Origin: Ginglymostoma cirratum
Lineage: Eukaryota
Direction of reading: 5' to 3'
DNA: 64,000 bases
NCBI GenBank assembly: GCA_024137785.1
Contig: JAHRHZ010000266.1
Location: 62,001 to 126,000 of the forward strand
Made by a program: the position numbers and the translations under genes. Under the pieces are notes generated by a model. It was not told the origin of the DNA and searched no databases. It was given only the letters and a program-made list of their open reading frames with translations. This document shows positions 7,413 to 62,139 of the stretch, in pieces (within the stretch, counting starts at the first letter, position 1; each line of letters opens with the position of its first letter).

Positions 7413-7684
7413 TTAACAGGACTTAAATTGAGGGTCAAGTTACTTGCTTTCAAAAACATCCAGTAATCCTTCAGCAATCCCTGGCTTTCCAACAATTCTG
7501 ATACATTTAAGCCCGCAATAAAAAATACAGAACGATAAAAAGGCACGGACTTTACAAAAAATAAAAATACATTTGAAGAAGAAAATTTCAAGTTTAGGCA
7601 TTGGTGAATCCCACAATGTTCCTTGAATTTGTTCTGGGAAATAGTACAGCTCGGTTGCACAGATTCAGTACTTTCTGTGAACGC

Positions 7685-7728
7685 TCACTCCTTATGTTTG
7701 CTCACAACAGCTGCATAGGTTACATCTG
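7685..7728 (-). CDS. Terminal coding exon with canonical ITIM (VTYAAV) and stop
   Basis: Acceptor tttctatatctttctag (NAGNAG tagcag). Reads (A)DVTYAAVVSKHKE*, where VxYxxV fits the ITIM consensus. Conserved in the paralog at 61432-61475. Confidence 0.75.
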
Positions 7729-8165: not shown

Positions 8166-8635
8166 AGTCCAACAGTCATTCTCATTCTCTTCTGACTGTG
8201 ATACATAGAAAGAGAGAGACAATCTGCTTGACTGATAGTCAAGTATCATCCAATGGAATAGTGAAGAATCTGCTTGTTTTCTGATTAGTGCAGTAAGGTA
8301 ACACCCCAATGGAGATGGACAGTTTGACTGACCAATGAAAGCAGCATTGCAGTGAGGGGATGGAGCTTGAAGGTGATGTGATCAAATCTCCATGCTCCAC
8401 CCAGCCCCAAATGGCACTGTTCCACACATGGGAGAATGGGCTCCAGGGGCTGGGAAAGGAGAAAAGATTAGGATTTGGATTTTGAAAAGAAAAAAACTGA
8501 CTCACTCTCTTCTGAATCAGCAACTGAGACAGTCTTGCCATCTTGAACTGAAAGAGAATATTCTGTTGGTGAGGAGGATGTATTTTAAATGTTGAGAAAC
8601 ATCACTATGTGGAAAAAATATTTGTAGATGGTTAC

Positions 8636-8689
8636 CTTTTCTCTTGCTATCAAACGTGATGCTGGCGTAGGTACAGGAATCAGGCTGAG
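8636..8689 (-). CDS. Cytoplasmic exon with ITIM-like motif CTYASI
   Basis: 54-bp phase-1/1 exon, acceptor tttgtattacag, donor AAG|GTAACC. Reads (A)QPDSCTYASITFDSKRK. Splice sites are conserved in the paralog at 62087-62139. Confidence 0.7.
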
Positions 8690-12000: not shown

Positions 12001-12372
12001 AATTTCTACCCCAGGATATTGGTACCCCTCTGGTTCAGGTGTAGACCATCCCATTTGTAGAGGTCCCACCTACCCCAGAATGACCCTCAAATATCCAGGT
12101 ATCTGAATCCCTCCCTCCTGCACCATCCCTGTAGCCACGTGTTCAACTGCTCTCTCTCCCTATTCCTCGCCTCGCCTCGCTAGCACGTGACACAGGTAAC
12201 AAACCAGAGATAACAACTCTGCTTGTTCTAGCTCTAAGCTTCCACCCTAGCTCCTTGAATTTCTGCCTTACATCCCCATCCCTTTTCCTACCTATATCGT
12301 TGGTCCCTACGTGGACGATGACTTAGGGCTGCTCCGCCTCCCCCTTAAGGATCCCAAAAACACTATCCGAGA
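9029..12372 (-). mobile_element. CR1/HER1-type LINE, near-complete ORF2 (APE endonuclease + RT) and end of ORF1
   Basis: ORFs 11398-11853, 11141-11401, 10036-11148 and 9102-9980 give EN and RT with frameshifts. TSD catcatag at 9021-9028 and 12373-12380. Empty site at about 62240. Confidence 0.95.
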
Positions 12373-13314
12373 CATCATAGCTTTACCTTTGAAAACTTTT
12401 TGATGAGCTGCATTAGAATCAGACATCAAACTGTTTTCAGAGTTATTTGGACAGGTGGTCCTCCAATAGGCCAACTTAAAAGGGGGAAAGAAAGTTGAGG
12501 AGTTCAGGTGGGATTCTCAAAGTCTTGGAGATTGAAAGTTAGGTACCAGAGACAATGTTATCACAGTCCAGTTAAACCAACACCAGTCATCTCTCTCTAA
12601 TGTGAGAACACTGTACCCTCCGGGATAAAGGTGAATTTATATTTACTGTAACGGATATGGAGTAGACAGAATTGGTGGTAAGAAGTTGTCTCAATGGATT
12701 GTAAGTGCATGAGGGTGGTGCAAAGATAGACTCAGTGCTGTAGAGGAATTTGAACCTGAGGAGGGATAACCTTTAATTTTATGCCTTTTTCAACTTGCAA
12801 GCAATTCTGGGCACCACGCCTTGGGAAGGATATTCTGACCTGAGGGAAAGTGTGGTGCAGAATGATGATATCTGGTCTCACACAGTTCAATTACAAGTTG
12901 TTCAATCACAAATTAGATTTGTATCCCTTTGCACTGCAAGGTTTGGGGAGTGATTTGATTTGATATCTCAAGGTAAGAAGAGCATAGACAATCTTTGTGC
13001 ATTTGCCAAGTTGGGATGACTCTGATGCCCTTTCGTGCGGATTCGTGATTCCATAACTACCAATGCTAATGCAGTGTTTCCAATTCTTTCACAGTCCTAT
13101 GGTTCAGGTCACAAAACCTGCACCCAGTACTCCATTGCAGAGGAAACACGTCCTGCTCATCCACAATTTTCATCCAGTTTGTCCAGAATTTTAAAGAGTC
13201 AAGGTTCACAGCGTCTCAGAGATATTGCAAACCGTGGTCTACACGAGGGAACTTATTGAGAGCTAAATTCAAAGTATGCCCTGTAATAAGGCGTGTCTTT
13301 CACATCCTGATTTA

Positions 13315-21990: not shown

Positions 21991-22264
21991 ATAGTTTTAG
22001 AACAATGCAGACTCAATGAGCCAAAGGGCCTTATTCTGTGCTGTAGAATTCTATAACTCAGTGTAAAAGTCTGCCCCTGAATATCTATCCAGGAACCCCA
22101 CAGTCTTGATGCTTCACACTCTCTCTGTTACAGTGTGGAAAATGGACATTAATTGGTCAGTTAAAGTATAATCAGTACCTGGAGCAGGCGGCTGCTGGGC
22201 ATTATCAGTCCTGGGAATGCTGGACAAACCTGGTTCATTCCTGAAAAACACACAAAGGAACATT

Positions 22265-26355: not shown

Positions 26356-26466
26356 CTCCTTTCTTCCTGAAGATAATGAAGATGATGACAATGATGAAGA
26401 TGATGAGCAGGAGGGCAAGCAATGGGATGACCAGCAGATATACAGTGGGGAACTCAGTCCTCTTGG
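26356..26466 (-). CDS. Transmembrane exon of the Ig receptor (uncharged TM)
   Basis: 111-bp phase-1/1 exon, acceptor atttttacag, donor GTGGGT. Reads (A)KRTEFPTVYLLVIPLLALLLIIFIIVIIFIIFRKKG: a long hydrophobic run followed by the basic stop-transfer RKK, in frame with V2b. Confidence 0.85.
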
Positions 26467-28722: not shown

Positions 28723-29070
28723 CATATACCTGAAGCCGAGTCTCTTTCTGGATCAGATACTGAGCATTGGGTTCTGAGATGTATTCCACCTGACACAGGT
28801 AAGTGTGATTGTCCCTCACACTCAGCTGGTCAATCCTGGTCGAGGCATTTCCCTCCTCTGGGTTCCCGATGAGCTCGTACCGATTTCTACCGCTTACAGT
28901 TGTCCAATTTCCCTGTGATTGGACTGTAAATGTTACAATGTGTTGGTAGGGCTTCTTCCTCATCCAGGTAACAGTGGACAGGGTGTCGGAGTCTCTGGTC
29001 ATGAAGATACAGGGTAAAGTAACTGAATCTCCATCTATTCCACTCACCACTAAGACATTTCCCTGCGCAG
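28723..29070 (-). CDS. Ig V-set exon V2b (second V-type domain)
   Basis: Open 348-bp phase-1/1 exon, acceptor ctttccccag, donor GTAAGA. Encodes AQGNVLVVSGIDGDSVTLPC...VTW...DNHTYLCQVEY...TRLQVY. Paralog of 43039-43386. Confidence 0.9.
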
Positions 29071-31019
29071 CTGGGGAAAGGACGAAGATCAGAATGGATG
29101 AGGTCAGTATGCAGAAGTTGTCAATTCAATTTGTTACATTTCTTTCAACTTCACGATAAAATGAGTAATTAAATGCGTCACTTATATTTATCACAGTTCT
29201 GGACTAGCCTGTTGTAGTCTCCTAAAGTAATCACCCTGATGAATATTACTCCCTCTCCACCCCCTCATTTTGAGTTACAGGTGCTCATTCACAAGATAAT
29301 TATGGATCAGAAAATGTACTGAACCCACCTGAATTCATTTATCCTGAGCCCAACACCCTCCTTCTCAGCTTTGCTAAATGTGTTTGTTATTTGTTCCCCA
29401 GCCGTACACTTCACACTGTGCCCCTTCAATCTGTCCAGGAATATCATTCCTGATTGAATATACGCCTGTGCGAAGGAGAATATTCCTGATATTAACCTGA
29501 ACATAACCTTTCACTCATTCCAAACTGTGACCTGTGCCATGAATACAGTTTGATTGAGGTCAATTGAAGTCTATAAGAAGATTTCCTGCAGCACCAACCA
29601 TGTCTTTGAATGTTGGGTGGTGGGGGAGAGGAATTAGCCTCATGCTGTACCATCTTTAAAACTTAATCATCTTCTGAAAGAGGGAATCACTCCTCATCTC
29701 CATCCTATTTTGAAAGGAGTTCCAAATTCACCCACTTCCTCTCAGCATCTACACTGTCAAGACCACTCAGGATCTTACAAGTTTCAATAAAGTCACCTCT
29801 TAATCTTCAGCAACGAGTAACCCTTGTTTGACTCTTAACCAATCAGAGTAGGCAGCAGCCACACTCTGATATTCTCAGCCAATGGGAAACAGGGAAGTGG
29901 TTTTTCACATTTTCTCAACCAATGAGACCTGAAGTTCTACAATGTGCTCACACAATGATGGATTAGAAGGTCCTTGCCCAATCTTGTCCTCAACCTCTGC
30001 CAATCACTGGACTGACATCAAGAAGGAGGTCATTTTCCCCATTGGGTCCTGGCTAGCTCCATGTGGAACAATCCAGGCAAGACCCACTCAATAGCTCGAT
30101 TCCCCCCCAACCCCTACCAATTTATTTCTTTCAAGTGTTTGTCTGTTTTTCGTTTGAAATCAATGACTATTCCCATATGCACCTCTGTTGATGTTGGTGA
30201 CTGTCAGCCATCAGCACTCTATGTGTAAAAAATTCACATTGCCTCTTCATCTCTGGCGCAAAATGTAAGGTCTGCATCCTTGTCCCAACAGCTAATGGAT
30301 GGACCTTTTGCTTGTCCTACTTTCTCTTCACCTGTCCCTATCTTCTTCACCTCAATCTAATCTCCCCTCAATCTCCATAGCTCCAAGGAGAACGACCTTT
30401 GCTTCTCAAACCTTGTAACTAAAATCAGTCTCCAATCTCCAACCCAAAAAATTTCAAGACCTCCCTGGAATACTTCAGGTAAATCTGCACTCTCTCACGG
30501 ACTTTCACATTCTTCCCAATGTGTGGTGACTGATCTGGATGCACAGTCGGAGCATTACCAATGTTTACGATTGTTAGGCTCCTTGACTGAAAGGTCAATA
30601 ATGATGGGGCATAATTTAATGTGAAAGCTTGGGAGACTGGAAGGGATTTGAGGAAACTTTTTTTTCAACAAGCAGGGAGTGGGAATTTGAAATGCACTGC
30701 TGGGAGGGTAATAGAGGCAAAAGCACTGAAATATTTTAAAACTACTTGGATGAGCAGCTGACCCATCATAAGATTCAAGGCTATGGGCCAAATGCTGGAA
30801 AGTGGGAGTAGTACAGATTTAGCCCAATTGGTTTGTTGGTGTAGATTCAATGGGCTCAAGGGCATCTTCTGTCCTGTTTGATTCTCTGATGCTGTGGTTC
30901 AGCATACCACGTGGGTGAATGGAAGGAACTAAAAGGGGAAGAAGATGATGGTGGGGGTAATCCTTTGGGTCCATTAAAGTAGCTATATGTTGGGACAGAA
31001 GGGTTCAGAAAAGACAGAC

Positions 31020-33210
31020 AAGGGGGTTACCAGGGTTGGAGGGTTTGAATATAGAGAGAGGCCGAATAGTCTGGGGTATTTTCCCTGGACCATGGAGATT
31101 GACAGGTGACCTTATAGAAGTTTATAAAATCATGACGGGCATGGATAGGATGAATAGGCAAGGCCTTTTGCCCAGGGTAGGGGAGTCAAAATGACAGGAC
31201 ATCGGTTTAAGGTGAGAGGGGAAAGATTTAAAAGGGACCATTTTCACGCAGAGGGTGCGACGTGTGTGGAATGAACTAGCAGATGACAAGGTGGAGGCTG
31301 GCACAATTACAATATTTAAAAGGCATCTTGATGCCTGCATGAATGGGAGGGTTTAGGGTGATATGTTCCAATTGCTGGCAAATGGGATTAGATTAATTTA
31401 GGAGATCTGGTCGGCATGGATGAGTTGGGCTGAAGAGTGTGTTTCCATGCTATACTTATCTATAGCTCTAATAGCTATCAGAAGACAAAAACTGAGAGGG
31501 AAACTGGCTGACTTACAGACCAATTAGTCCCCTGGACGTCTCTGGATGCTTCGAGGATATTAAAGGAAGTAGCTACAGAGACAATAACTGCACATGTACT
31601 AATCTTCCAAGAATCTTTAGATTCTGGATAGGTCCCAGATAATTAAAAATCTCCCAATATAACACCTTTGTCTTTCAAGGAAAGGAGACAAAAAAAGGTA
31701 ACCATAGGCAGTTCAGTTAACAATTGTTATTGGGAAAATGTTAAAGTATAATTAAACATGTAATCATTGTGCATTTGTAAATGTATAATATAATCAAAAA
31801 GAGTCAACATGGCTTCATGAAGGGGAAATCATGCCTGACAAATTTACTTGAATTATTTGAAGTGGTAACATGCTGGATTAATAAAGGGGAATCAGTGGAT
31901 GTTGTATATTTTGATTTTCAAAAGACATTTCACAAGGTGCTACAAATTAAGTTCCTTATTAAGATTAGGTTCCCTAGTGCTGGTGGCAGTATAATCAGCA
32001 TGGATGGAGGATTGACTAACTCATAGAAAGCAGAAAGTTGGGATAACGGCATTGATTTCAGGCTGGTAACCTGTAATTAGTGGAGTGCCACAGGGATCTG
32101 TTTTGGGGTCACATTTATTTACAATTTATGTTAATTTCTTGGATGAGATACTTGAACGTGTTGTAGCTCAGTTTGCTGATGATAGGTGAAAAGGCAATTG
32201 ATGAGGAAGAAACAAAGAAGCTCCAGAGAGATAAAGAGATGTTAAATCAGTGGGCAAAAACTTGGCAGTTGGAATAAAATGTGAAAAATGTTGGGTGATA
32301 CATTTTGGTCGGAAGAATAGAGGAGCTGAATATTATTGAAACAGAGAAAACCTGTAGAATGTTATAGAACAGAGGGATTTGGAAGGTTCATGAATCATAA
32401 AAACATTCAAGCTCAGCAGGTAGTAGGGAAGGCAAATGAAAAGTTGACCTTTATTTCAAAGAGAACGGAATATAAAGCTGGGGAGGTTTTGCCAGGTACT
32501 AGTCAGTTCACAGCTGGAATACTGTAAATAGTTTTGGTCTCTTATCAAAGGAAAGTTAAACTGACATTGGAAGCAGTCCAGAGAAGGTTCAAATAGTTGA
32601 TGCGAGGTATGGAGGGTCTGTCTTATGGGCAGCTGTTGAGTAGATTGGGCCAGTACTTGTTGGAATATAGAAGAATGAAAGGTGACCTTATTGAAACACA
32701 GAAGATTCTTCGGGTGCTTTACAGGAGAGAAGCAGAATGTGTGTTTCTCCTTGTGGGTGAGTGTAGAACCAAACGGCATCATCTCAGAAAAAGGGGTTAC
32801 ACATTTAAGATGAGAGGAATGTCTTCTCTTCAATGTGTTTGAATCCAGATAACAAGGTGTAGAGCTGGATGAACACAGCAGGTCAGGCAGCATCAGAGCT
32901 TTCCTGCTCCTCTGGTGCTGCCTAGCCTGCTGTGTTCTTCCACCTCTACACCTTGTTATCTCAGATTCCAGCATCAGCAGTTCCCATTATCTCTTTTTGA
33001 ATCCAGACTTCATTTCTGCAGAGACCAGTTAAGGTTGGGTCACTAAGCATAGTCAAGCTGAGATTAACAAATTTGTAATCAGCAAGGTGATCAAGGGCTG
33101 TAAAGTAAAAGCAGGAAAATGGAATTGAAGTTATATCTCAGTCATGATGTCATTGAAATGTGGAATGGACACAAGGGGCGAAATGCCTTATTCTATTCCT
33201 ATGTCTTATG
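31020..33210 (+). mobile_element. Cluster of degenerate CR1 LINE fragments
   Basis: SQHGFMKGKSCLTNLLELFE...DVVYFDFQK peptide and CR1 3' ends at about 31470 and 33210. Confidence 0.85.
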
Positions 33211-33779
33211 GTCTACCTGCCTCAATTCTCCATATCTCTCATTTCCTTTTCCAACCACTCTCTCAATATGTCCTGACATCTTCAAAAATGATGGACACAA
33301 ATGGCCAACTTCCTTTATCCAGACCAATCCTTTAAGACCATGACATTGACTCCATATGGCCCATAGGGAGATGGAAATAGTGGGGATCGTGGAGCATGGA
33401 TCCTTTGTGATGTTTTCTCTGTCGCTGTCCCAGAACACTGCAGCCAGTTTGAATGTGACAAATTACTGTGTCAGTGAAGAAAACAGGAGGTTTCAGAGAG
33501 TGTGAGATAACAAGGTGTAGAGCTGGATGAACACAGCAGGCCAAGCAGCATTAGCGGAGCAGGAAAGCTGACGTTTTGGTCTGGACCCTTCTTTCAGAGA
33601 GTGCGATGGAATGGTCTTTAAATCCCAGCATCATCTCTCTCTCTCCTTCTCACTGTCTCCTGCCTGAGACCCAGTGAAAAAGCTCAAGAGAAAGAGCCAA
33701 CCCGAGAGCTCCCTGACCAGGGGAACCTGTTCCCATTGAGCTATCAGGGCAGTGACACCATCCGGACGTTGTTCCTTAC

Positions 33780-34163
33780 CTTGTACTTCCAGCATTGTTG
33801 GAGACCATGTTCGAAAACTGTCAATATTGAGTTCCACACGACAAAGGTAGGAACCAGCATCCTCCCAGCTCAGTCTGTCCATCATTAGTGAGACATCTTT
33901 GTTGCTGAGGTTCCCCACGAATCTGAATCGATTCTCACCATCCTGCTGTTTCACATTCTCACACAGCTCACCCTGGGAATGGTCTAGACCAGGAAATGCA
34001 CATCTAAAGATTACTCCTGTGTCAGATTTAATCCATATCACGGAGCCAGTGAGTGTGAGATTAGTGTCTGGGTGGGTGAAGCTGCAGGGTAAGACAGCGG
34101 TTCTTCCTTCCTCTGCCCTCACACCATCCGCGACTGTCATTGACCAATCATTTTCAGAAAACT
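33780..34163 (-). CDS. Ig V-set exon V1b, Siglec-15-like sialic-acid-binding-type domain
   Basis: Open 384-bp phase-1/1 exon, acceptor ccccttgcag, donor GTAAGG. Encodes FSENDWSMTVADGVRAEEGRTAVLPCSFTHP...IFRC...ELC...RFRFVGNLSNKDVSL...DAGSYLCRVEL...LEVQ. Same length as, and paralogous to, 47839-48222. Confidence 0.9.
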
Positions 34164-34289
34164 CTGCAAGGGGAAAGCAAAAAAGAGAGGATATGAACAC
34201 AGCACAGGAACAGACATCAGTGTTTGGAACAGAAACTTTGAGACTCAATCCTGAGTTTGATATTTAGTGAGAATAGGGTTAGAAATTAT

Positions 34290-34710
34290 AATGAGAGGCA
34301 GTGAACTAACGGTATTACCCATTCATGTGCCATCCAATACACTGGGGACAGAGTTTCACTTTCCACCATGGCCGCTGCTGGAATTTCAATTCAGTTATTT
34401 CATCTGGAATTAAACACTAGTGGAGTTGTTGGTTGTTTCGCTGAGCTGGAAGGCAGATGAAATGTTTGCATGAAAGCCAGCCAGTGAACCAACTAATAAC
34501 TCCAGCTACAAGCCAAGCTACAGATCTTCCCTAAAACTGTAAACACTAGTCGAATGGTCTCCATGAAACCATCATCAATTGTTGGAAAAACAATCTGGTT
34601 CACTGATGCTCTTTAGGGAAGGGAAATGCCATCCTTATCCAGTATGGCCTACATGTGACTCCACGTCCCACAGCAACAGATTTGACTCTAATATACCCTC
34701 AGAATTGGCC
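34290..34710 (+). mobile_element. SacSINE1/DeuSINE-like SINE with an internal insertion
   Basis: Contains the agggaagggaaatgccatccttatccagtatggcctacatgtgactcc central domain. Confidence 0.65.
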
Positions 34711-34764
34711 AGGGAAAACTCTGAGTTGCGCAAAACCATTCCAAAATGTAAAAGGAATGTTATA

Positions 34765-36005
34765 GAGTCATAGAGATGTACAGCACACAAACAGACCCTT
34801 CAGTCGAACTCGTCCATGCCGATCAGATATCCGAAATCAAACCAGTCCCATGTGCCAGCATTTAGCCCATTTCCTTCTAATCTCTGTCTCGCCCATTGCC
34901 ATCTAGAGTCCTTTTAAATGCTGACATTGTGCCAGCCTCCACCACTTCCTCTGGCAGTTCATTCCAACACTCAGTGTGAAAAAGATGTCATTTAAGTGCC
35001 CTTTAAATCTTTACTCTCCCACCCTAAACCCAAGCCCTCCAGATGTGGACTCCGCTACCCTGGGGAAAAGACCTTGACTATTCAGCCTATCAATGCCCCT
35101 CATGATTTTATAAACTTCTATAAGGTCACCCATCAACCTCCAATGCTCAAGGGAAAATAACCCCAACTTGTTCAGCTTCTCCCTATAGCTCAATCCTTCC
35201 AATCCTGGCAACATGCTTGTAAATTTTTTCTGAACTCTTGAATTTCACAACATCTTTCCTATAGCAGGGAGACAAGAAGTGAATGTAGTATTCCAAAAGT
35301 GGCCTAACCAGTGTCCTAGACAGCTGCAGCATGACTAACCAATTCCGATACTCATTGCACTGACCAATAAAGCAAGTGTACCAAATGCCTTCTTCACTAC
35401 CCTGTATACCTGTGACTCCACTTGCAAAGAATTTTAAACCTGCACTCCAACATGTCTTTGTTGGTAACAGTGCCCAGGAGCTTATCATTAAGTGTATAAG
35501 TGTTGCACTGATTTGCATTTCCAAAATGCATCACCTCACATTTCTCTAAATTAAACTCCATCTGCCATTTCTCAGCACATTGGCCTGTCTGATCAATGTC
35601 CCATTGTACTGTGAGATAAACTTCTTCGTTGTCCACTACACCACCAATATTGGTGTCATCTGCAAACTTACCAACCATACCGACGTTATTCACATCCACA
35701 TCATTTAGATAAATGACAATAAGCAATGGATCAAGCACCGATCCTTGCGGCACACCGCCGGAAACAGGCCTCGAGTCCGAAAAGCAATCCTGCTTCACCA
35801 CCCTCTGTCTCCTTCCATCGAGTCAGTAATGCATCCAAATGGCTGGTTCCCCCTGTATTCCATGTGATCTAATCTTGCTAACTAGTCTATAATGTGGAAA
35901 ATTTTCAAATGCCTTAGTGAAGTCCACTTACGTAATGTCCATTTCTCTCCATTCTTCAATCATCTTTGTCACTTCTTCAAAAAACTCCATCAAATTAATG
36001 AGTCA
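34765..36005 (-). mobile_element. CR1 LINE 3' portion
   Basis: GVPQGSVLDPLL, KFADDT and LVRPLLEY peptides plus a 3' tail. Confidence 0.9.
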
Positions 36006-37899
36006 TGTTGTGTCTGAACAGGAAATAGTGTGCCGATAACCATGTCCTGTTGCTCCACACATCACCAGGAACTGTACAAATGTACAACAATCCCAGTGAG
36101 ATCACCCTTGACAGACAGTTACTCAGGACAGAAGTGAACCACACCAGGATTCTTCAGTAACGGTTAAGATAGTTCCATTAGCCAAAAAATCCAATGTGGA
36201 GAGCAGTGAAAAGAAAGGATTCCTGATTAATANNNNNNNNNNNNNNNNNNNNNNNNNNNNNNNNNNNNNNNNNNNNNNNNNNNNNNNNNNNNNNNNNNNN
36301 NNNNNNNNNNNNNNNNNNNNNNNNNNNNNNNNNNNNNNNNNNNNNNNNNNNNNNNNNNNNNNNNNNNNNNNNNNNNNNNNNNAGTCCGTGTGAAGGCAAA
36401 GTCCCACCTTCACATTGAGGGTACATATCCATCATGCATGGCACTAGCCCGGTGTTAAATGGGACTGACTTTGAACAGATCTAACAACTCAAGACCAGGA
36501 TCCATGAGACACTGTGGACTATCAGTCTAGCAGAATTGGGCTCCAACACAATCTGTCAACTCATGGCCTGGTATTTTCCCCCATTGAAACAGTAACATCA
36601 AGTCAGGCGTTCAACTCTGGTTCAATGAACAATGTGGGAGGAAATGCCAGGAACAATACCAGCAAAGCTGAAAATGAGATGTCAGCTACAAAACAGGGCT
36701 ACTTCCATGTTAAACAGCATAAACAGCGTGGGATAAGTGATTCCACTGCCAGTGCATCAGACGTAAGTTCAGCAGACCTGCCACTTGCAGTAACCAACTA
36801 ACAGGAGAATGAGTCCCCACAAATATCTCCATCCACAACGAGAGGGAGCACAGCTCAGCAGTTCAAAAGACAGGGCTGAAGCATTCACAACTAATTTGAC
36901 CGAGAAGTGCTTCGTGATGATTCATCTCAGTCTTCTCCAGAGGTCCCCAGCATCATAGATGACTCTTTACCCAGAAGGCAAACATAATTTGGTGGGTCTG
37001 CAGTCACACATAGGTAGGGCTAGGAACAGAAATCATGGGACCTAGTGTTGTTCCTCATGCAGCCCCTGACCCATCGTCACCAGCCCACACTCGCTTCCAC
37101 TGACCTGGCACAGTGAACCCCATTATTGAAATCTGATGTGCCAGCCACCCCCGTCCTTGCCCTTTATGTGGACCAGACCAAGCAAGGATGGTGGAGAGTG
37201 GAGACAAAAACAGAAATTGCCAGAAAAAATCAGCAGGTCTGGCAGCATTTGTGGACAGAAAGGAGAGTTAATATTTTGGGTCCAGTGACACTGCTTCAGA
37301 AACAAAATGATCGAAAATGGTGGACTGAGAGTAATGTGGATCTTGCAGCTGCTCTGGAGATTCAGGTTCATTTCCAGATTTAGTTTGAGATTTCTTATAT
37401 TTATTAAATTTCGGTAGGGTATGATTTTATTTTGATTCATTGTTAGTTCTTTTACAGGCAAAAACAAAAAAAAACAAAAAATTGACAATTTTTTTTTAAC
37501 AAACGGAGTTCAGTCAATGGACCTTTTGGATCTGCCTGCATGTGGACTGCTCAGTGTTTTTCCTCTGTAACATTGTAAGAGATTTTTTTAACATTGCTAA
37601 AGTGACTTTTTTAAAATTGCAAATTTTAAAGTGTTTTGTTTTAAATGGAGTTGTGTTTACAGAGCTTTGGGAAAGGCTTACACTCTGATGGCTCTGGGGT
37701 GGGATTTCTTTTAATCAGAAGATGGAAAGCTGTTTGCTCGGCCACTTCAGCTGGAGTCATTTTTTTTTTATTTGATCGTTCAGCAAACTGGTTGATTTTA
37801 TTGAAGATTTATACCTCATTTTATTTTATTTCTTATTTCTTACTCTTTGGGTAAGGCAAAACAGTTTGTTTTAGAGATAAGATGCTATTGTAAGCTACT

Positions 37900-40800
37900 T
37901 CTTTTTAAGCCTAATGACATTGAAGGCAGACAAGACGCAAGAATGAGATGGTGAGTAGATTTAGAGAAGTGATTACACAGCAAGATCAGTCAGATCGATG
38001 GATGACTGTCAGGAAAGTTAAGAAGACAGTTCAGAAATCTCCCGTGGCTATTTCTCTCTCAAACAGATTCTTATTTTTGGGTACTGTTGAAAGGATAGTC
38101 TCTCAGAGGAGAATAGACGAAACAGTCAGATTGTGGGGACTAAGAATGAAGCTAAAATGAAGCGGGGTTTGACAAAATTTAAAAGAATAATTGTTGGAGG
38201 TGACTGTCCTATCAAGGGCACAGTCAGGGGATTCTACTGCAGTGAGCACGAATCTAGCATAGTATGCTGCCTTTCTGGTGCCAGGATTCAGAATGTTGCA
38301 AAACATTTGAAGTATATTGTTAAAGGGGAGAGTGAGAAACTGAAGGTTATTGTACAGATTGGTAGGAACAACATTGTTAAGGAAAAGATTTACAAAGTGA
38401 ATATGGAGAGAGGGGGAGATAAAAGGTACTGCAGATGCTGGAGAATCCGAGATAACAAGCATGGGGCTGGATGAACACAGCAGGTCAAGCAGCATCATAG
38501 GAGCAGGAAAACTCGACGTTTCGGGCCTAAACCCTTCATCAGAAATGGGGGAGGGGAAGAGGGTTCTGAAATAAATAGGGAGAGAGGGGGGGAGGCGGAT
38601 AGAAGATGGATAGAGGAGAGGATAGGTGGAGAGGAGGCAGACANNNNNNNNNNNNNNNNNNNNNNNNNNNNNNNNNNNNNNNNNNNNNNNNNNNNNNNNN
38701 NNNNNNNNNNNNNNNNNNNNNNNNNNNNNNNNNNNNNNNNNNNNNNNNNNNNNNNNNNNNNNNNNNNNNNNNNNNNNNNNNNNNNNNNNNNNNNNNNNNN
38801 NNNNNNNNNNNNNNNNNNNNNNNNNNNNNNNNNNNNNNNNNNNNNNNNNNNNNNNNNNNNNNNNNNNNNNNNNNNNNNNNNNNNNNNNNNNNNNNNNNNN
38901 NNNNNNNNNNNNNNNNNNNNNNNNNNNNNNNNNNNNNNNNNNNNNNNNNNNNNNNNNNNNNNNNNNNNNNNNNNNNNNNNNNNNNNNNNNNNNNNNNNNN
39001 NNNNNNNNNNNNNNNNNNNNNNNNNNNNNNNNNNNNNNNNNNNCAGCCCCATGCTTGTTATCTCGGATTCTCCAGCATCTGCAGTACCTTTTATCTCAGA
39101 TACAAAGTGAATATGACAGGTTGTGAAGAAGATTAAAAAAATGTTCCTCAAAAGTACTAAATCTCTGATTTACTCCTGGTGCCTGGCTCAGGTGAGGAAT
39201 GAAAAAACTAAAGGAGGCAAATCAATGACTGAAAAGGTAGTGTAATGAACAGAGTTTCAGATTCTTGAAGCTCTCGGATCATTTCTGGAACAGAAAAGAC
39301 CTGTTCAAAAAGGATGGGTTTTACCTGTACTGGATTAGAGAACAATGGATGGGTAATGATATTGTGGTTCTAGTTAAGATTAAAAAAGTGTCATATATAA
39401 GACACAAACAACTGGGTTTAAATTAATATCTTGAACAGTGTAATGAGTGTAGGGGCATTATTAACAGCGAGGTTAGGAATTCAAAGAAAGGATATGACTT
39501 AGTCTTGGCAAATAAGGTTAAGGTTAATCCAAAGGGATTCTACAGGTACATTAAGAGCAAGACAGCAACTTGAGAAGAAAGTAGGGCCCTTTAAAGATCA
39601 AAGAGGTCATCTTTGTGTTCAACTTCAGGAGTTGGGGAGAGATACTCAGTGAATATTTTGCATTAATTTTTTTCCTGTGGAAAAAGAAATGGAGGCTAGA
39701 GAATTCTGGGAAAAAAAATTGATGTTTTGAAAATAGTTTGCATTGCTGAAGAGTAAGTGCTGGAGGTCTGAGAAAATACAAATCTCTGAGATCTGATCCA
39801 GTGTACACCAAAGCTTTGTGGGAAGTTACGGAAGAAATTAGCGGGCCACTTGCAGAAATATTTGTACCATTTACAAATACAAGTGAGATGCTGAATGTCT
39901 GGAGAGTGGCTAACATGGTGCCTTTGTTTAAGAATAGACTTAAGGAGAGGCGTAGTAACTATAGACTTGTGAGTCCGACTTCGGTGGAGGGTATGTTGTT
40001 GGAAGTGATTCCGACAGTTAGGAGTTCTCTGCGTTCGGAGAAGCAAGGAATGACGAGGGATAGCCACCATAGCTTTGTACAAGGGAAATTGTGTCTCACA
40101 AGCTTGATTAAGTTTTTTGTGGATGTGACCAAGAAGATTGATGAGGGCTGAATGGTAGACATTGCTAACTTTGACTTTGGTAAATCCTTTGAAAAGATTC
40201 TGTATGGTCGACTAATTAGTCAAGTTAACTCACATGCAATTCAGGGTTGCCAAGTGGCTGCAAAATTGACTTAATCGCAGGAGACAGAAAGTGATGGTGG
40301 AGGGATTTTTTTGGACTCGAGGCCCATGACTAATGGTGTTCCACAGGGATTGGTGCTGGGTCCACTTTTGTTTGTCCTTTACATAAGTGATTTAGATGAG
40401 AAAAAACAAAGCATGATTTGTAAGTTTGTGGATGACATCAAGATTTGCAGTACGTTGGGCAGTGAAGAAGATTATCTGAGGTGACAAGGAGACCTTGATC
40501 AATTGGGTCAATGAGCTGAACAGTGAGGAATGCAGTTGAATTCAAATAAATGTGAGGTGTTGTACTTTTGGAAAACAAATAAAGGCAAGACTTTTCAATT
40601 CAGAGTAGGGCCTTGGGTTTTGTTGTAGAGCAGAGAGACACCTCGGCTTTCAGGTTCATAATGTTTTGAAGCTTGCATCATCTTTAAATACGATGGTTAA
40701 GAAGGTGTTTAGCACACTTGCCTTCATCGCTCAGACCTTGAGGGTAAGAGTTGGGATGTTATGTTGAGTTTGCACAGGATGTGAGTGAGGCCTCTACTGG

Positions 40801-41310
40801 GGTACTGTGTCCAGTTCTGGTCGCCTTATTATAGGAAGGACATTATTAAGCTGGAGAGGGTTCAATAGAGATTTATCAGGATGTTGCTGGGAAAGGAGGG
40901 CTTTAGTTATTAGGCAAAGCTGTATAGACTGGGACTTCTCTCAGTGGAGTGTTCAAGGTTAAGAGGTGACCTTACAGAAGTTTATGAAATCATGACGTGT
41001 ATAGATCAAGTGAATGGCTGGTGTATTTTCCCTAGGTTATGGGATTTCAAGACCGGGGGCATAGTTTTAAGGTGAGAGCAGAAAGATTTTGAAAAGACAT
41101 GAGGGCAAATGTTTTCTACATTGACTTTAGTTTGTGTGTGAATGAATATCCAGAGGATGTGGTGGATGTGGTTATAGTTGCAATGTTTAAAAGATAAGTA
41201 CATGAATAAGAAATGTTTGGAGCAATATGGAAGAAGCACAGGCAGGTGGGACTAGTTTAGTTTGGGATTATGGACCGGTTGAACCAAAGGGTCTGTTTCC
41301 CTGCTGGATG
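37900..41310 (+). mobile_element. Old CR1 LINE (ORF1 esterase remnant + RT), internally deleted, interrupted at 38406-39100
   Basis: IVGGDC..VCCLSGARIQ..VQIGRNN (SGNH-like) peptide and WRVANMVPLFK..NYRLVS RT peptide. Confidence 0.85.
38406..39100. mobile_element. Penelope-terminus element with inverted ends and 15-bp TSD (interior in an N gap)
   Basis: TSD tacaaagtgaatatg at 38391-38405 and 39101-39115. 38416-38469 is inverted at 39044-39097. Confidence 0.75.
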
Positions 41311-42407
41311 TCTCGATAAATTTATAACTAGTTCTAGCTGGGAAAATTTCAGTATAAATGCTGAAGATCGGGTGGAGGGAGGGGACAGGAGTGCATGCTC
41401 AGTAGAGATGGAAACCAGAGAGAGAGAAAAATAATTGTACAGACAAAGGAATGGAAAAAGGTCAGCCTGGGAGAATGAATAGCTGCAGAAGGGGGCCATT
41501 AGTCACCGACAATGGATTGTTTGTAGTCACAGCCCATGTGATGACAGGGCCTGGTGTGTTGGGTTTGGGAGAACGAGAAAGGGGAAGGAGCTCAAGCCTT
41601 AAAATTATTGAACACAATATTGAGTCCAGAAGGCCACAGGATCCCCACACAGCGGTGTGTTGAAATGGCAGGCAACTGGAAGCACAGGGTCATTTTTGTG
41701 GATAGAATATATGTATTCTGCAAAGCAGTCTGTGTTTTATCTTCCCAATATAGAAGTAGAAGTGAATTGCACAGAGTTAGAGAGTTTTTTGGTGGAACAT
41801 CTCTGAGCCAGTTGTGATGGAGAGAGAGAGCTCAAGATATTGCCATGCATCGCCGTATGCACAGAGAGTGGAAGGCAGATTTCATTTCCTCACCATATTC
41901 TTACCAGACCATGGGGCTGATTTCTCATTAGGGGCTGACGACTGGTGGCCATTTAACCTGAAGGCCACTACATCTCAGGCGAAGGAAGAGGTTGAGAAGA
42001 ACAGTTCTTCATTGTAACAGCCTGTGTGGGAATTGAACGGTTGGCATCACAACACTTTGGAAACCAGTCGTCCAGCCAACTGAGCTAAACCAACCCCCAG
42101 ATCCCCTAAATGGCTTGACTGAATCAGATGGGCTTTTCCAGTTATAATCTATGGTCACATGTGGCCATTAGATTAATTTCTCATTTAAATTCCAGACATT
42201 TAAAAATTACATTCAAGTTTCACCTTCTGCTCTTGCAAGGTTTCAACCCATGGCCCAGTGACAGCAGCAGTATACCGCCACCACCCTTTATAACCCATGT
42301 GTGGCTGCGTCTTTAGGAAAGGTCCTAGATGGGCGTGAAACCTCTCCCAGATGGACGTGAAACCTCTCCCAGATGGACACTAGAGGAATGTACTTACACT
42401 GAACTAT

Positions 42408-42640
42408 CTCATAGAATCCCTACAGTGTGGAAACAGGCCCTTCGGCCCAACAAGTCCATACCAACCCTAAAAGCATCCTACCCAGACCCATCCCCCCATC
42501 ACCCAAATAATCCACACCATCCTGAACACTGTTGACAATTTGGCCTATACACCTAGCCTGCACGTCTTTTGGACTGTGGGTTGAAACCGGAGCACCTGGA
42601 GGAAACCCACGCAGACACTGGGAGAACGTGCAAACTATGC
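42408..42640 (-). mobile_element. HE1-like SINE, 5'-truncated
   Basis: Homologous to 7857-8070. Absent from the paralogous intron at about 27955. Confidence 0.8.
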
Positions 42641-43038
42641 CTGATGAAGGTATGAGCATTTTCATTGTAAACAAAAGGGACACATTAGATTGTTGCACCT
42701 TGCTGCTCGAGGAGATGATCTCAACGTCAGTATAACTTTGGGTTGTTTGGAGATTGAACTGAATATTCTGAGTGCGTCAATGTCTTTCAACACTGACATC
42801 AGAATGCACGTAAAAGGATCAGCACATCAAATTACAGTAAATATATTACAAACTCAGAAAGCTGGAAATTTGAAATAAAAATCAAAATACTGCCAATACT
42901 CAGCAGGCAACCATCACCTGTGGAAAGAAACAGGGTTAACATTTTAGTTCAATGACCTTTCACCAGAAAATCAAATCACAAAACATCCACAGGATATGTC
43001 ACACACTCAGATTGAAGAATGAGTGAATGGCTGCTTAC

Positions 43039-43386
43039 CATGTACCTGCAGCCGAGTTTCTTTCTGGATCAGATACTGGTAACTGAGTCTTGATCTGTAT
43101 TCCACCTGACACAGGTAAGTGTGATTGTCCCTCACACTCAGCTGGTTTATCCTGGTCGAGGCGTTTCCCTCCTCTGGGTTCCCGATGAGCTCGTACCGAT
43201 TTCCACCGTTTACAGCTGTCCAATTTCCCTGTGACTGGGCTGTAAATGTAATGATGTGTTGGTAGGGCTCCTTCCTCAACCAGGTAACAGCGGCAAGTTT
43301 GGAGTAGTACCTAATCCTGAAGGTACAGGGTAAAGTGACTGAATCTCCCTCTGTCCCACTCACCACTGAAACTTCTCCCTGAGCAG
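43039..43386 (-). CDS. Ig V-set exon V2a (second V-type domain)
   Basis: Open 348-bp phase-1/1 exon, acceptor ttcctcag, donor GTAAGC. Encodes AQGEVSVVSGTEGDSVTLPC...VTW...RYELIGNPEEGNASTRINQLSVRDNHTYLCQVEY...TRLQVH, with canonical B-strand Cys, C-strand Trp and DxxxYxC. Confidence 0.9.
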
Positions 43387-47838: not shown

Positions 47839-48222
47839 CTTCCACTTCCAGCCTTGTTGGAGACCGTGTTTGAAAACTGCCAGAACTGAGTTCCACACGA
47901 CAGCGATAGAAACCAGCATCCTCCTGCTTCAGTCCCTCCATCATTATTGAGACATCTTTGTTGCTGAGGTTCCCCACGAATCTGAATTGATTCCCACCAT
48001 CCCGCTGTCTCATATTCTCGCACAGCTCACCCTGGGAATGGTCTGGACCAGGATGTGTACAGTCAAAGATAACACCTTTGTTCTGTTTCTTCCATATCAC
48101 GGAGCCGGTGACTGTGAGATCAGTGTCTGGGTGGGTGAAGCTGCAGGGTAAGACAGCAAAGCCTCCTTTCTCAGCCCTCACAGTGTTCGCAACTTTAATG
48201 GACCAACCGTTTGCAGAATACT
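47839..48222 (-). CDS. Ig V-set exon V1a, Siglec-15-like sialic-acid-binding-type domain
   Basis: Open 384-bp phase-1/phase-1 exon between acceptor ctcctcacag and donor GTGAGG. Encodes YSANGWSIKVANTVRAEKGGFAVLPCSFTHP...VIW...IFDC...ELC...FRFVGNLSNKDVSI...DAGFYRCRVEL...TRLEVE. The motif order (WSxxV, AVLPCxFTHP, FxC..ELC, FR.GN..D.SL, YxCRVE) matches Siglec-15 V-set as recalled; no search was run. Confidence 0.9.
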
Positions 48223-52300: not shown

Positions 52301-52954
52301 CAAATGCAATGTTGGCATTTATTTTGAGAGGACTTGAATATAAAAGCAGGGATGTACTTCTGAGACTTTATAAGGCTCTGATCAGGCCACATTTAGAGTA
52401 TCGTGTGCAGTTTTGGGCCCCATATCTCAGGAAGGATGTACTGGCCCTGGACCAGGTTCAGAAGAAGTTCACGGGAATGGTCCCAGGAATGGAAAGCTTA
52501 ATATAGGAGGAACGTTTGAAGACTCTGGGACTTTACTCATTGTTGTTTAGAAGGATGAGGGGGGATCTAATTGAAAAAACTTACAGAATACTGAATAGCC
52601 TGGACAGAGTGGATGTTGAGAAGATGCTTCCATTGGTAGGAAAGACTAGGACTCGTGGGAACAGCCTTAAAATAAAGGGAAGACCTTTTAGAACAGAGAT
52701 AAGGAGAAACCTCTTCAGCCAGAGAGTGGTGAATCTATGGAATTCACTGCCACAGAAGGCTGTGGAGGCCAGGTCATTGAATAATTTTAAGACTGAGACA
52801 GATAGGTTCTTGATTATCAAGGGGATCAAGGGTTACAGGGAGTAAGTGGGAGAATGGAGTTGAGGAGCTTATCAGCCTTGACTGAATGGCGGAGCAGATT
52901 TGATGAGCCAAATGGCCAAATTTCTGCTCATACGTCTTATGGTCTTATGGTCTT
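49320..52954 (+). mobile_element. CR1 LINE, near full-length (ORF1 esterase part + ORF2), same subfamily as 5027-7412
   Basis: GCLPGARVRDI..VLVHTGTTN, YDVVGITETWL, GSDH and KFADNTK peptides, with a (tcttatgg)n tail. Confidence 0.95.
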
Positions 52955-52969
52955 AAAAGGGAAGTAACA

Positions 52970-56480: not shown

Positions 56481-58139
56481 AGAGAGGTATTATGATAGGA
56501 TAGGACAAATAAGAATATGTTTTTCATCAGTAGAGGGGTCAATGAGCAGGAAATATAGATTTCAGGAAAGAGATAGAAGATAAAAGGGGAGTTAAGGAGG
56601 GTTGAGGAGAATCTGTTTTGCACAGAGGATGATAAGAGTCTGGCACTCACTGCCTGAAAGGCCGGTTGAGTTCGAAACACGAGTAACGTTTGACCAGTAT
56701 TCAAGTCTCCATCTGCATGTCTATTTGCTCTTCAGTAGCCTGCACCTCTACTGCCTCATTTCTTTTTAATTTTTAAAACTTCCCTCCAATTGAATCCGTC
56801 CTCCCACCCCCACCCTTATACCACTTATTAGTTTAAAGCCCTCAATAAGTTGGTAAAAAGGCATATGGACCAAGTGCTGCAAAATGAGAGAGGTATAGTC
56901 AGATCTTTGTTCTCTGACACAAACATGATGAGCCAATGACCTCTTTCTATGTTGTAAATTGCTAAGAGTTCATGAATCTACAATGAAGCCTTCAAGGAAT
57001 GAATCTTCACACTTGTAATAGTTAATTGTAAAACCGAAAGAAATGCGGATGCTGCAAATCAGGAACAAAAACAGAAAGTGCTGGAAAAGCTCCCCAGGTC
57101 TGTCAGCATCTGTGAAGAAAAAAATCAGAGTTAACATTTCGGGCTGGTGCCCCTTCCTCAGAACCTCGGGTCAATGGGCCCAAAACTTGAACTCTGACCT
57201 TTCCTCACAGATGCTGCCAGAACTGCTGAGTTTTCCCAGCAACTTCTGTTTTTATTCCTGAACAGTTAATTGTCACTGGTTGACTGGCAGTAATTCAGAC
57301 TCGTCTTATTGATAAAACTGCATTGAGGCTGAAATAGACAAAATGTAACTTTCTATGCTGAAATCAGTTTGTCTCAAAGAATGTCATAAATTCACATCAT
57401 GCAGTAAATCTCAATGGTCAGCCAACAGCAGCGTTTTGTTGCATCAAGTAGCAAATTTTGGATTTCTGTGTTCTGAATTTACAGTATTATTTGTAAGAAA
57501 TAACAGCAAACGCCTTTTGATTCATCATTGTTACTTCTCAGTCAGTTATGCCCAATGTCTCTCTGAAACCTGGTTGTGCCTGCAGTATTCCGTATCTGCC
57601 CTGACTCTCTGGAAGTTTACNNNNNNNNNNNNNNNNNNNNNNNNNNNNNNNNNNNNNNNNNNNNNNNNNNNNNNNNNNNNNNNNNNNNNNNNNNNNNNNN
57701 NNNNNNNNNNNNNNNNNNNNNNNNNNNNNNNNNNNNNNNNNNNNNNNNNNNNNNNNNNNNNNNNNNNNNNNNNNNNNNNNNNNNNNNNNNNNNNNNNNNN
57801 NNNNNNNNNNNNNNNNNNNNNNNNNNNNNNNNNNNNNNNNNNNNNNNNNNNNNNNNNNNNNNNNNNNNNNNNNNNNNNNNNNNNNNNNNNNNNNNNNNNN
57901 NNNNNNNNNNNNNNNNNNNNNNNNNNNNNNNNNNNNNNNNNNNNNNNNNNNNNNNNNNNNNNNNNNNNNNNNNNNNNNNNNNNNNNNNNNNNNNNNNNNN
58001 NNNNNNNNNNNNNNNNNNNNGACCCTTCTTCAGAAAATGGGTCTGAAGAAGGGTCCAGACCCGAAACATCAGCTTTCCTGCTCCTCTGATGCTGCTTGGC
58101 CTGCTGTGTTCATCCAGCTCTACACCTCGTTATCTCTTA

Positions 58140-61431: not shown

Positions 61432-62139
61432 TCACTCCTTAAGTGTGCTCACAACAGCTGCATAGGTTACATCTGCTAGAAAGATACAGAAATCAGAGCT
61501 GATTGTAGTTATAATTTCAGTTTGAGGGTAATTACAGAAAAGGGGCACGTTTTCCCCAAACATCAGTCCCTTCGTTGTCAGGGCAATGACAGGAAAGAGA
61601 AATATTTATTCCAACAGTTGTACATTTTTCCCCTCATTCTCTTCTGACCATGTTACATTGAAAGAGTGAGACAAACTGCTTGACTGACAGTCAACTATCA
61701 TCCAATGGAATAGTGAAGAGTCTGTTTGCTTTCTGATTGGTGCAGTAAGGCAACACCCCAATGAAGATGAACAGTTCGACTGCCAATGACAGCAGCATTG
61801 CAGTGAGGGGATGGGACTTGAAGTTGATGTGATCAAAACTGCATGCTCCACCCAGCCCCAAATGGCACTGTTCTACATATGGGAGAATGGGCTCCAAGGG
61901 CTGGGAAAGGGGAAAGGATTACGATTAGGATTTTGAAAGGATAAAAACTGGTTCACTCTCTGCTGAATCAGCAACTGAGACAGTCTTGCCATCTTGAACT
62001 GAAAGAGAATAACCTGTTGGTGAGGAGGATATATTTTAAATGTTTAGAAACATCACAATATGGAAAAAACATTTGTAGCTACTTACCTTTCCTCTTTCTA
62101 ACAAACATGATGTTTCTTAAGTACAGGAATCAGGCTGAG
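61432..62139 (-). pseudogene. 3' exons of a paralogous Ig receptor gene: disrupted penultimate exon (62087-62139) and ITIM exon (61432-61475)
   Basis: The penultimate exon is 53 bp rather than 54 and reads QPDSCT-TAA (stop at 62117-62119 where the other copy has TAC). The terminal exon DVTYAAVVSTLKE* is intact in sequence. The rest of the gene lies beyond the window, so this could be a tail-truncated gene rather than a pseudogene. Confidence 0.6.

Follow-up and report, generated by a model that had tools for sequence, protein, structure and literature searches.

Siglec-15's V-set domain is defined by a B-F disulfide plus an extra C'-C'' disulfide (PMC10264397). Siglec-15 itself is an activating receptor of the V-C2-TM(Lys) type and carries no ITIM. 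A study of the bony fishes describes four conserved Siglecs, with the CD33-related inhibitory ones lacking, and sharks go unmentioned in the available part of its text (PMC7226832). Here we describe a carpet-shark locus whose V domains have Siglec-15 as their best PDB sequence match, but whose architecture and predicted signalling are different.

The window, i.e. the whole stretch of DNA that was analysed, comprises 64,000 nt of Ginglymostoma cirratum (GCA_024137785.1, JAHRHZ010000266.1, positions 62,001-126,000, forward strand). It contains what we read as one gene of roughly 50 kb within a tandem cluster; the exons are observed, and we infer that they are joined into a single transcript. The product would be a predicted inhibitory receptor consisting of a leader, V1, V2, V1, V2, a neutral transmembrane (TM) segment and a tail with an ITIM-like motif and an ITIM. 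The features are:

61436..62139 (ends approximate), minus strand: final cytoplasmic exons of the family member that lies upstream, with a premature stop in the CTYASI exon
57621..58020, minus strand: N gap of 400 N that probably conceals the leader exon, expected near 57886-57946
47839..48222, minus strand: exon V1B, predicted to be domain 1, a V-set resembling Siglec-15 that carries the A-strand Trp, the F-strand Arg and an additional Cys pair (C'-C'')
43039..43386, minus strand: V2B exon, predicted domain 2, V-set without the Arg, BC and FG loops basic/aromatic
36233..36382, no strand: N gap of 150 N between the end of the V2B-intron homology (36992) and V1A, the main possible hiding place for a gene boundary
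33780..34163, minus strand: exon V1A, predicted to be domain 3, a V-set resembling Siglec-15 that carries the Arg
28723..29070, minus strand: V2A exon, predicted domain 4, V-set without the Arg, BC and FG loops acidic
26356..26466, minus strand: transmembrane exon, membrane span without a charged residue
23953..23992, minus strand: cytoplasmic exon 1
22179..22240, minus strand: cytoplasmic exon 2
8636..8689, minus strand: cytoplasmic exon with the ITIM-like motif CTYASI
8506..8547, minus strand: penultimate cytoplasmic exon, read by eye, with a phase that fits both neighbours
7685..7728, minus strand: final coding exon, which encodes the canonical ITIM VTYAAV and contains the stop codon
703..763, minus strand: leader exon belonging to the family member that follows downstream

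The gap at 57621-58020 is probably the leader site because the adjacent segment 57212-57620 has 91% identity with 28-437, which is intron below the leader of the next gene. According to Pfam, all four Ig exons encode V-set domains, with no C2-set domain among them, whereas in Siglecs C2-set domains come after the V-set. V1B, which is flanked by splice sites, matches the Pfam V-set at 3.6e-11 and Siglec-15, its best PDB sequence match, at 6.5e-11; the corresponding best match of V2A is again Siglec-15 (1.4e-9). The V2A and V2B exons are 348 nt each, in phase 1-1 on the minus strand, and the coordinates given are their exact ends. A rearranging antigen receptor (Ig, TCR or IgNAR), in which the V segment stops short of the G strand and recombination joins it to J, was rejected, as the coding sequence of each V exon includes the G strand and has a GT donor at its end. 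Neither an activating-type exon nor an ILYAEI-type tail exon was found within the 64-kb window.

In a first-pass annotation, V2A and V2B had been called paralogs. If taken to mean two genes, this term is probably wrong, and the two exons probably represent domains 4 and 2 of a single V1-V2-V1-V2-TM-ITIM gene. A search between V2B and V1A (34164-43038) revealed no TM, tail or leader-like exon, and this interval has repeats alone in common with the DNA upstream of V1B. Were V1B-V2B and V1A-V2A separate genes, the boundary would have to lie within an N gap or to have dropped out of the assembly. There are N gaps at 36233-36382 and 38644-39043, most relatives have a single V1-V2 cassette, and V1B and V2B fall outside a grouping with domains 1-2 of a Stegostoma model that has four domains. 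In the tree, the sister of V1B is not domain 1, and the V2 tree, a quick version, placed neither V2A nor V2B with support. On the other hand, a lost segment would need tens of kb, the homology between the V2 introns stays colinear on either side of the 400-N gap, the splice phases are compatible with one gene, and the nearest relatives of V1A are internal domains (sister to domain 3 of the Stegostoma model, support 96/87). We therefore regard two genes as unlikely. The alternative concerns structure only and is compatible with our preferred explanation as well as with any other reading of the loops given below.

Siglec-15 (PDB 7ZOZ; PMC10264397 and the available part of PMC7226832) is the best PDB sequence match for both V1 and V2. 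V1 has the equivalents of W44, R143, C64-C142 and C95-C104: YxCRV of V1B and V1A aligns with R143, the Arg is present in 39 of 49 shark V1 domains, and both Cys pairs are found. V2 has just the B-F pair (C64-C142) and keeps Y87 (53/53) and mostly Y154 (36/53). Its exon begins past the position of the A-strand Trp, and the essential Arg and Trp are both absent. The first-pass annotation had pointed to a Gln in place of the Siglec Arg. Gln93 does align with Arg143 of Siglec-15, but we rejected the view that it is a special substitution: in 53 shark V2 domains, position 93 is Leu in 43, Gln in 8, Val in one and His in one, and never Arg (0/53).

The sequences place the window gene in an elasmobranch-wide, Siglec-15-derived family with ITIM and TM-Lys forms, i.e. 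paired receptors. A hydropathy/motif screen assigned 27 of 100 relatives to the TM-Lys forms and 33 of 100 to the neutral-TM ITIM forms, which co-occur in 12 of 21 elasmobranch species; the TM of the TM-Lys relatives resembles that of lungfish Siglec-15 models. In the elasmobranch relatives the TM directly follows V2, and five of the 100 are V1-V2-V1-V2 models. RefSeq and UniRef relatives in sharks and rays, up to 83% identical to V2A and with no identical protein among the matches, carry automatic names (uncharacterized, "Siglec-15-like", "pIgR-like" or "JAML-like"). A newt and a caecilian likewise have ITIM-bearing relatives. A literature search aimed at this family found no description of it, though supplementary gene lists could name it.

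V2A and V2B are identical at 88 of 115 amino acids and 297 of 345 nucleotides. They differ at 9 of 12 residues in BC and 5 of 6 in FG (14 of 18 together) versus 13 of the 97 framework residues (Fisher p 1e-7; p 3.5e-4 once corrected for the choice of the best 12+6-residue window, 20,000 permutations). DSSP applied to the AlphaFold models of two homologues agrees with the loop assignment, and every peptide quoted in the first-pass annotation is present. The frameworks that it called nearly identical are 87% identical at the protein level, and the loops that it called "almost wholly replaced" are changed at 78% of residues. The switch from acidic to basic loops holds for the pair (net charge -2 in V2A, +5 in the basic/aromatic V2B). 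A family-wide dichotomy was rejected, as net charges span -3 to +5 and are mostly 0 to +4; with both members near the extremes among 31 carpet-shark V2 domains, the switch is a property of the pair and not of the family.

An even spread of substitutions in a larger set of copies had been named in the first-pass annotation as evidence that would refute its reading. Such a spread was not seen; at the protein level, BC and FG still concentrate the variation. In 29 non-window carpet-shark V2 domains, entropy is 1.65 bits in BC and 1.60 in FG versus 0.35 in the other loops (p 5e-6, with related sequences counted as independent). This focus holds across the 29 V2 domains from carpet sharks and across 51 from sharks, and 22 of 24 disjoint pairs within species show it too; the V2 core is strongly constrained, with variation almost confined to BC and FG. 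The lower variation of DE and EF could be explained by the conserved sequons for N-glycosylation located there (N74 in 50/53, N87 in 44/53). The V2 FG span ranges from 12 to 17 residues in sharks and reaches 31 in skates (of the 98 V2 domains, 33 could not be parsed and are omitted, most of them batoid or fragmentary), whereas FG of V1 spans 10 residues in each of the 65 parsed domains, which argues for exposure of the V2 FG loop.

Diversifying selection on the V2 loops is at most suggested, the selection test being confined to one pair (V2A/V2B). Measured against their own dS, the loops have a dN/dS of 1.4, which is not significant (Fisher p 0.39), and loop dN is about three times the exon-wide or intron divergence (p 0.003 or smaller). 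The 18 non-synonymous loop changes were reached in 0 of 3000 neutral simulations at the intron/exon divergence of 0.22 (p 0.0007 for structure-defined loops). The excess persists at d 0.30 (p 0.0007-0.014); if the loops are older (d 0.49), it loses significance under two of three loop definitions (p 0.08-0.14; p 0.02 for the third). It is possible, though we doubt it, that BC and FG just form the tip of a spacer, free of constraint, and that V2 has no specific binding, with short conversion tracts from older paralogues lifting both dN and dS in the loops. Loop pS (0.36) exceeds framework pS (0.16; p 0.09), the local dN/dS is indistinguishable from 1, loops are shuffled among relatives, and the conservation of DE and EF could be due to their glycan sequons. 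Relaxed constraint and import fit less well with remaining V2 loops that are about five times less variable, with a V1 BC loop that is conserved (0.30 bits) and with the non-synonymous excess over intron divergence that survives d 0.30.

The first-pass annotation had also considered that gene conversion homogenised the framework. For this pair it is not needed: framework pS (0.158) is near intron p (0.190; p 0.30 and p 0.20 in two comparisons), and purifying selection (framework dN/dS 0.37) suffices to account for the framework identity. A recent conversion event, after which neutrally diverged loops would look special, could have left the 51-nt identical run (permutation p 0.012, uncorrected for constraint) and the mid-framework pS of 0.10-0.11 versus 0.19 in the intron (p 0.06-0.13). 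Since the loop pN of 0.45 also far exceeds intron p, we hold this to be very improbable. Among relatives, Heterodontus and Chiloscyllium punctatum each have all four combinations of BC and FG variants, and a PHI-like test for recombination gives p 0.0005-0.002 in bamboo/epaulette sharks (Hemiscyllium alone is weak, p 0.049 and 0.28), with the caveat that the gene models may be allelic or chimeric.

AlphaFold V1-V2 models of two relatives (pTM 0.81 and 0.85), which are homologues of the window gene built from one common alignment, each align with Ig1-2 of Dlar along the two domains (Z 12.9, rmsd 4.0-4.2, 179-180 residues). Foldseek yielded no good superposition of two domains (TM about 0.35-0.45 at best). 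LAR-type Ig1-2 has been described as V-shaped (PMC6078854). If V1-V2 has this shape, the V2 BC and FG loops would sit at the exposed apex, a candidate fast-changing ligand-contact surface of the hinge type known from KIR and LILR. The apex placement is taken from standard Ig topology, in which BC and FG of a second Ig domain adjoin the linker. V1A and V2A entered as separate chains gave a complex-prediction score of 0.05 (alignments not used), which is evidence neither way.

The same adjacency to the linker would be expected if the V2 loops acted inwards, touching V1 or the linker, setting the V1-V2 angle and tuning presentation or cis-masking of the sialic-acid site of V1, to which the selected surface would then belong. 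V1 is indeed the more variable domain overall (mean 0.69 vs 0.54 bits; 20 vs 11 sites above 1.5 bits), its variation sits around the sialic-acid site (CC' loop and G strand), and dN/dS between V1A and V1B, taken over the entire domain, is about 1.0-1.3. Skates, however, tolerate insertions that lengthen FG by up to about 18 residues, there are models of V2-only isoforms and one of the form V1-V2-V2-V2, and the predicted arrangement is V-shaped. An inward role thus appears rather improbable. The first-pass annotation was right about the loop focus of V2 and missed the probable single gene, the V1 variability that is at least as high, and the paired activating/inhibitory family.

By a modest margin over doubt, we favour a single four-V inhibitory gene with V-shaped cassettes and a variable V2 apex as contact surface, its loops reshuffled and their change driven by ligands or pathogens. 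Both V types would descend from a Siglec-15-type V-set domain, V1 retaining the sialic-acid residues and V2 having dropped the Arg and the A-strand Trp. Each V1-V2 cassette would fold as a V, with V2 BC and FG at the exposed apex beside the V1 CC' loop, making up a variable surface for hinge-type contacts such as those of KIR and LILR. Loop change may be driven by pathogens that engage the ITIM forms or by polymorphic ligands, and exchange within the V2 exon would reshuffle BC/FG variants among paralogues, including the TM-Lys activating partners. The window gene would then carry two cassettes with apices of opposite charge on one inhibitory chain.

Tentatively, the family may constitute an undescribed paired system of sharks and rays derived from Siglec-15, in which V1 reads sialic acid as a mark of self and V2 loops at the apex of the V recognise protein ligands; this proposal includes germline CDR1/CDR3-like V2 loops of variable length, reshuffled from gene to gene, microbial or polymorphic self ligands, and multi-cassette genes that provide two specificities per inhibitory chain. 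If true, it would be a cartilaginous-fish counterpart of the CD33-related Siglecs or of KIR-type leukocyte receptors. If the V2 loops are a binding site, these would be candidate inhibitory leukocyte receptors of the oldest jawed lineage, with a lectin domain turned into a CDR-like sensor. The loop pattern alone is unsurprising, as variation concentrated in loops is well known from clustered paired immune receptors; the novelty lies in the family, an expanded elasmobranch set derived from Siglec-15 with inhibitory and activating forms.

Among known systems, the skate MDIR receptors are likewise elasmobranch multigene activating/inhibitory Ig receptors, described as CD300/TREM/pIgR-like in the available part of the report (PMC3031540). 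V2 also has weaker PDB matches to TIM and pIgR. Compared by name, no MDIR-named protein was among the 86 matches of a skate query or the 100 profile matches. The Ig1-Ig2 unit of LAR-type phosphatases (3PXJ, PTP-delta, PTP-sigma) is the best two-domain fold match to both models, but at 14-18% identity this likeness is one of geometry only, with no functional link. KIR2D, LILRB1/2 and NKp46 (PMC3972465), bent two-domain receptors with paired signalling that bind by loops of both domains or by the interdomain hinge, are a candidate for how the V2 loops might work, the hinge site being here deduced from models; those receptors have C2-type domains, and no sequence kinship was found. In contrast to Siglec-15, the shark family forms a multigene cluster of V-V or V-V-V-V receptors without C2, has a second V domain without the Arg, and includes many neutral-TM ITIM forms such as the window gene with its VTYAAV motif. 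The closest functional analogue is probably provided by the CD33-related paired Siglecs (Siglec-5/14, Siglec-11/16 and the two-V Siglec-12) and PILR alpha/beta, which are likewise clustered and fast-evolving, with ITIM/charged-TM pairs, gene conversion and loss of the Arg in some domains (PMC13358205, PMC6288428, PMC3533184). The shark family differs from the CD33-related Siglecs in deriving from the Siglec-15 rather than the CD33 V type, in lacking C2 domains, and in placing its CDR1/CDR3-like variation in a non-lectin second V domain.

The window belongs to a tandem cluster whose copies recur about every 55-57 kb: besides the gene under study, it includes the last exons of one further family copy and the leader exon of a third. 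The gene under study carries two cassettes (B, then A), each pairing a Siglec-15-like V-set domain with the Siglec Arg (V1) and an Arg-less V-set domain (V2):

about 61400-62140, minus strand: final exons of a further copy, the upstream neighbour
48222-47839, minus strand: V1B exon, V-set (Pfam)
43386-43039, minus strand: V2B exon, V-set (Pfam)
34163-33780, minus strand: V1A exon, V-set (Pfam)
29070-28723, minus strand: V2A exon, V-set (Pfam)
26466-26356, minus strand: single neutral transmembrane (TM) exon, after V2A
ending at 7685, minus strand: five tail exons bearing CTYASI (ITIM-like) and VTYAAV (canonical ITIM)
763-703, minus strand: leader exon of a third copy, the next gene

Identity of the Ig exons to carpet-shark proteins (Hemiscyllium, Chiloscyllium, Stegostoma, Rhincodon) reaches 83%, which points to an orectolobiform shark; their database matches include no identical protein. 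The gene is neither a canonical Siglec, having no C2 domain, nor Siglec-15, having no TM Lys. In the upstream neighbour's CTYASI exon (62067-62139, minus strand), which is one base shorter, the Tyr codon has become a stop, which would truncate the tail ahead of both tyrosine motifs except where this exon is skipped. A 262-bp inverted duplicate (394-655 and 1423-1684, 100% identity) on both sides of the next gene's leader exon is either a recent inversion or an assembly artefact. LINE-type reverse-transcriptase fragments, presumably CR1, are abundant; long copies lie in introns at 9102-12377, 15501-18373 and 50535-52957, the last being 87% identical to 5033-7416.

Of 115 residues, V2A and V2B have 88 in common, and 14 of 18 positions in the BC (CDR1-like) and FG (CDR3-like) loops differ versus 13 of 97 in the framework (Fisher, 1e-7; still 3.5e-4 once window choice is allowed for). 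The loop-focused difference claimed in the first-pass annotation is confirmed, and with more copies aligned it extends across the family. Mean entropy in 29 other carpet-shark V2 domains was 1.65 bits for BC, 1.60 for FG and 0.35 for the six other loops (p = 5e-6), and in 51 shark V2 domains 2.1 for BC/FG versus 0.65 for the others, related sequences being counted as independent throughout. In 24 disjoint within-species V2 pairs, V2A/V2B included, 128 of 332 loop positions and 188 of 2327 framework positions differ, loops exceeding frameworks in 22 pairs. In V2, FG spans 12-17 residues among 51 shark sequences and 14-31 among seven batoid ones (33 of 98 domains unparsed); in V1 it spans 10 in 65/65 parsed. 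In skate and electric ray (relatives P0060, P0061, P0078, P0081, P0051), V2 FG loops are extended by inserts of roughly 14-18 residues, a CDR3-like length. The proposed acidic-to-basic switch is real in the window pair (charge -2 to +5) but extreme within the family. Gln in place of the Siglec Arg does not characterise V2, whose position 93 is mostly Leu in 53 shark domains (Leu 43, Gln 8, Val 1, His 1, Arg 0); Arg occupies the equivalent position in 39 of 49 shark V1.

For the V2A/V2B loops, pN was 0.45 and pS 0.36 (dN/dS 1.4, p = 0.39); for the framework, dN was 0.066 and dS 0.178 (ratio 0.37), with an exon-wide dS of 0.22. The non-synonymous excess in the loops is significant against exon-wide or intron divergence (Fisher, 0.003; binomial, 1.5e-4). 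Neutral simulation with three loop definitions gave p ≤0.0007 at d = 0.22 and ≤0.014 at d = 0.30; at d = 0.49, which is the dS of the loops themselves, p was 0.02-0.14. Selection is thus favoured only on condition that the loops are as old as the exon. Homogenisation of the framework by gene conversion, the other suggestion of the first-pass annotation, is unlikely and indeed unneeded for this pair, because framework synonymous divergence is close to, and not below, that of the introns (p = 0.30; second test, p = 0.20); the only signs of it are an uninterrupted identity of 51 nt (p = 0.012) and a reduced pS in the middle of the framework (p = 0.06-0.13). Relatives do show exchange: with two BC and two FG variants, each of the four possible combinations is seen in Heterodontus and in C. 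punctatum, the Heterodontus variants being multi-residue and their combinations spanning TM-Lys and ITIM forms. A PHI-like test at the protein level gave p = 0.0005-0.002 for 22 bamboo/epaulette V2 domains and 0.049-0.28 for Hemiscyllium alone. Alleles or chimeric gene models could account for part of this signal.

Both cassettes quite probably belong to a single gene. Neither a TM nor a tail nor a leader-like exon turned up in the V2B-V1A interval, nor, repeats excepted, anything homologous to the DNA upstream of V1B; V1-V2-V1-V2 models make up five of 100 relatives, with V1A placed as the sister of domain 3 in a Stegostoma four-domain model (support 96/87). Two separate genes, to which two N gaps in this interval and the failure of V1B to group with domain 1 of that model would point, are the less probable arrangement. 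The 400-N gap at 57621-58020 is the expected place for the leader of the single gene, since intron sequence directly below the gap has its match in the intron below the leader of the next gene. Between the cassettes, 212 of 1118 intron sites differ (0.19), versus 0.107 between the gene and its upstream neighbour; thus, either the cassettes duplicated before the gene did, or later homogenisation has acted on the neighbours.

Judged by sequence, V1 is apparently no bystander in this variation. V1A and V1B agree at 88 of 127 positions, their dN and dS being much the same (0.19), and in 31 relatives variability reaches 2.28 bits in CC' and 1.35 in the G strand, with a conserved BC loop (0.30). CC' and the G strand adjoin the site that serves Siglec-15 for glycan binding according to PMC10264397 (excerpt). 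A J-like FGxG motif is present in the V1 G strand of many relatives (window V1: 33780-34163, 47839-48222). In alignments, V1 retains W44, R143 and both disulfide equivalents of Siglec-15; V2 is without the Arg and Trp equivalents and keeps those of Y87 (53/53) and Y154 (36/53). At about 30-32% identity to V1A and to Siglec-15-type V domains of lungfish, V2 thus goes back to a duplication of this one domain, followed by divergence.

For two natural V1-V2 homologues, P0020 and P0004 (domains 3-4), AlphaFold models (pTM 0.81 and 0.85), with identical alignment rows behind both, agree with the BC/FG placement originally annotated. Both match Dlar Ig1-2 across two domains (Z 12.9, rmsd 4.0-4.2, 179-180 residues), level with PTP-delta and with single-domain Siglec-15. 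Dlar Ig domains reportedly form a horseshoe, as the title of one paper has it. By standard Ig topology, a V arrangement would bring V2 BC and FG and the V1 CC' loop together at the apex. If the cassette adopts the V shape of LAR-type Ig1-2 (PMC6078854, excerpt), V2 BC/FG would lie beside V1 CC' at its apex. We lean slightly towards a V2 BC/FG contact surface as the best explanation; it is a rather doubtful further step to a Siglec-15-derived paired system in which V1 might read sialic acid and germline V2 loops might bind protein ligands at the apex.

Relatives gathered by profile search and then by a skate-seeded search came from 21 elasmobranch species, one more (skate-seeded), lungfish, newt and caecilian, all under automatic names. 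The first 100 comprise 27 with a charged TM, 33 with a neutral TM and ITIM, 12 with a neutral TM without ITIM and 28 with no TM found; both signalling types coexist in 12 of the 21 elasmobranch species. A V1-V2-V2-V2 layout (Heptranchias) and V2-only and V1-only isoform models were seen among P0048, P0028, P0029, P0042 and P0058. Among P0094 and P0097-P0100, the lungfish Siglec-15 models combine a TM Lys with two or three V domains in tandem; relatives from newt and caecilian are V(-V)-C2-TM-ITIM with identical CTY and VTY motifs, and inhibitory Siglec-15-like receptors may therefore be ancient. Literature searches aimed at the receptor family found no description of it; the whale shark genome paper, in the portion available, has a single generic mention of Siglecs. 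Compared by name, none of the skate-seeded matches is an MDIR, the skate receptors of PMC3031540 (excerpt).

The paired-receptor layout is that of Siglec-5/14, Siglec-11/16 and PILR, in which gene conversion is known (PMC13358205, PMC6288428, PMC3533184, in excerpts). KIR2D binds ligand by loops of both domains and LILRB by the hinge (PMC3972465, excerpt); the V1-V2 apex predicted from the models may serve in a similar hinge-type or two-domain way.
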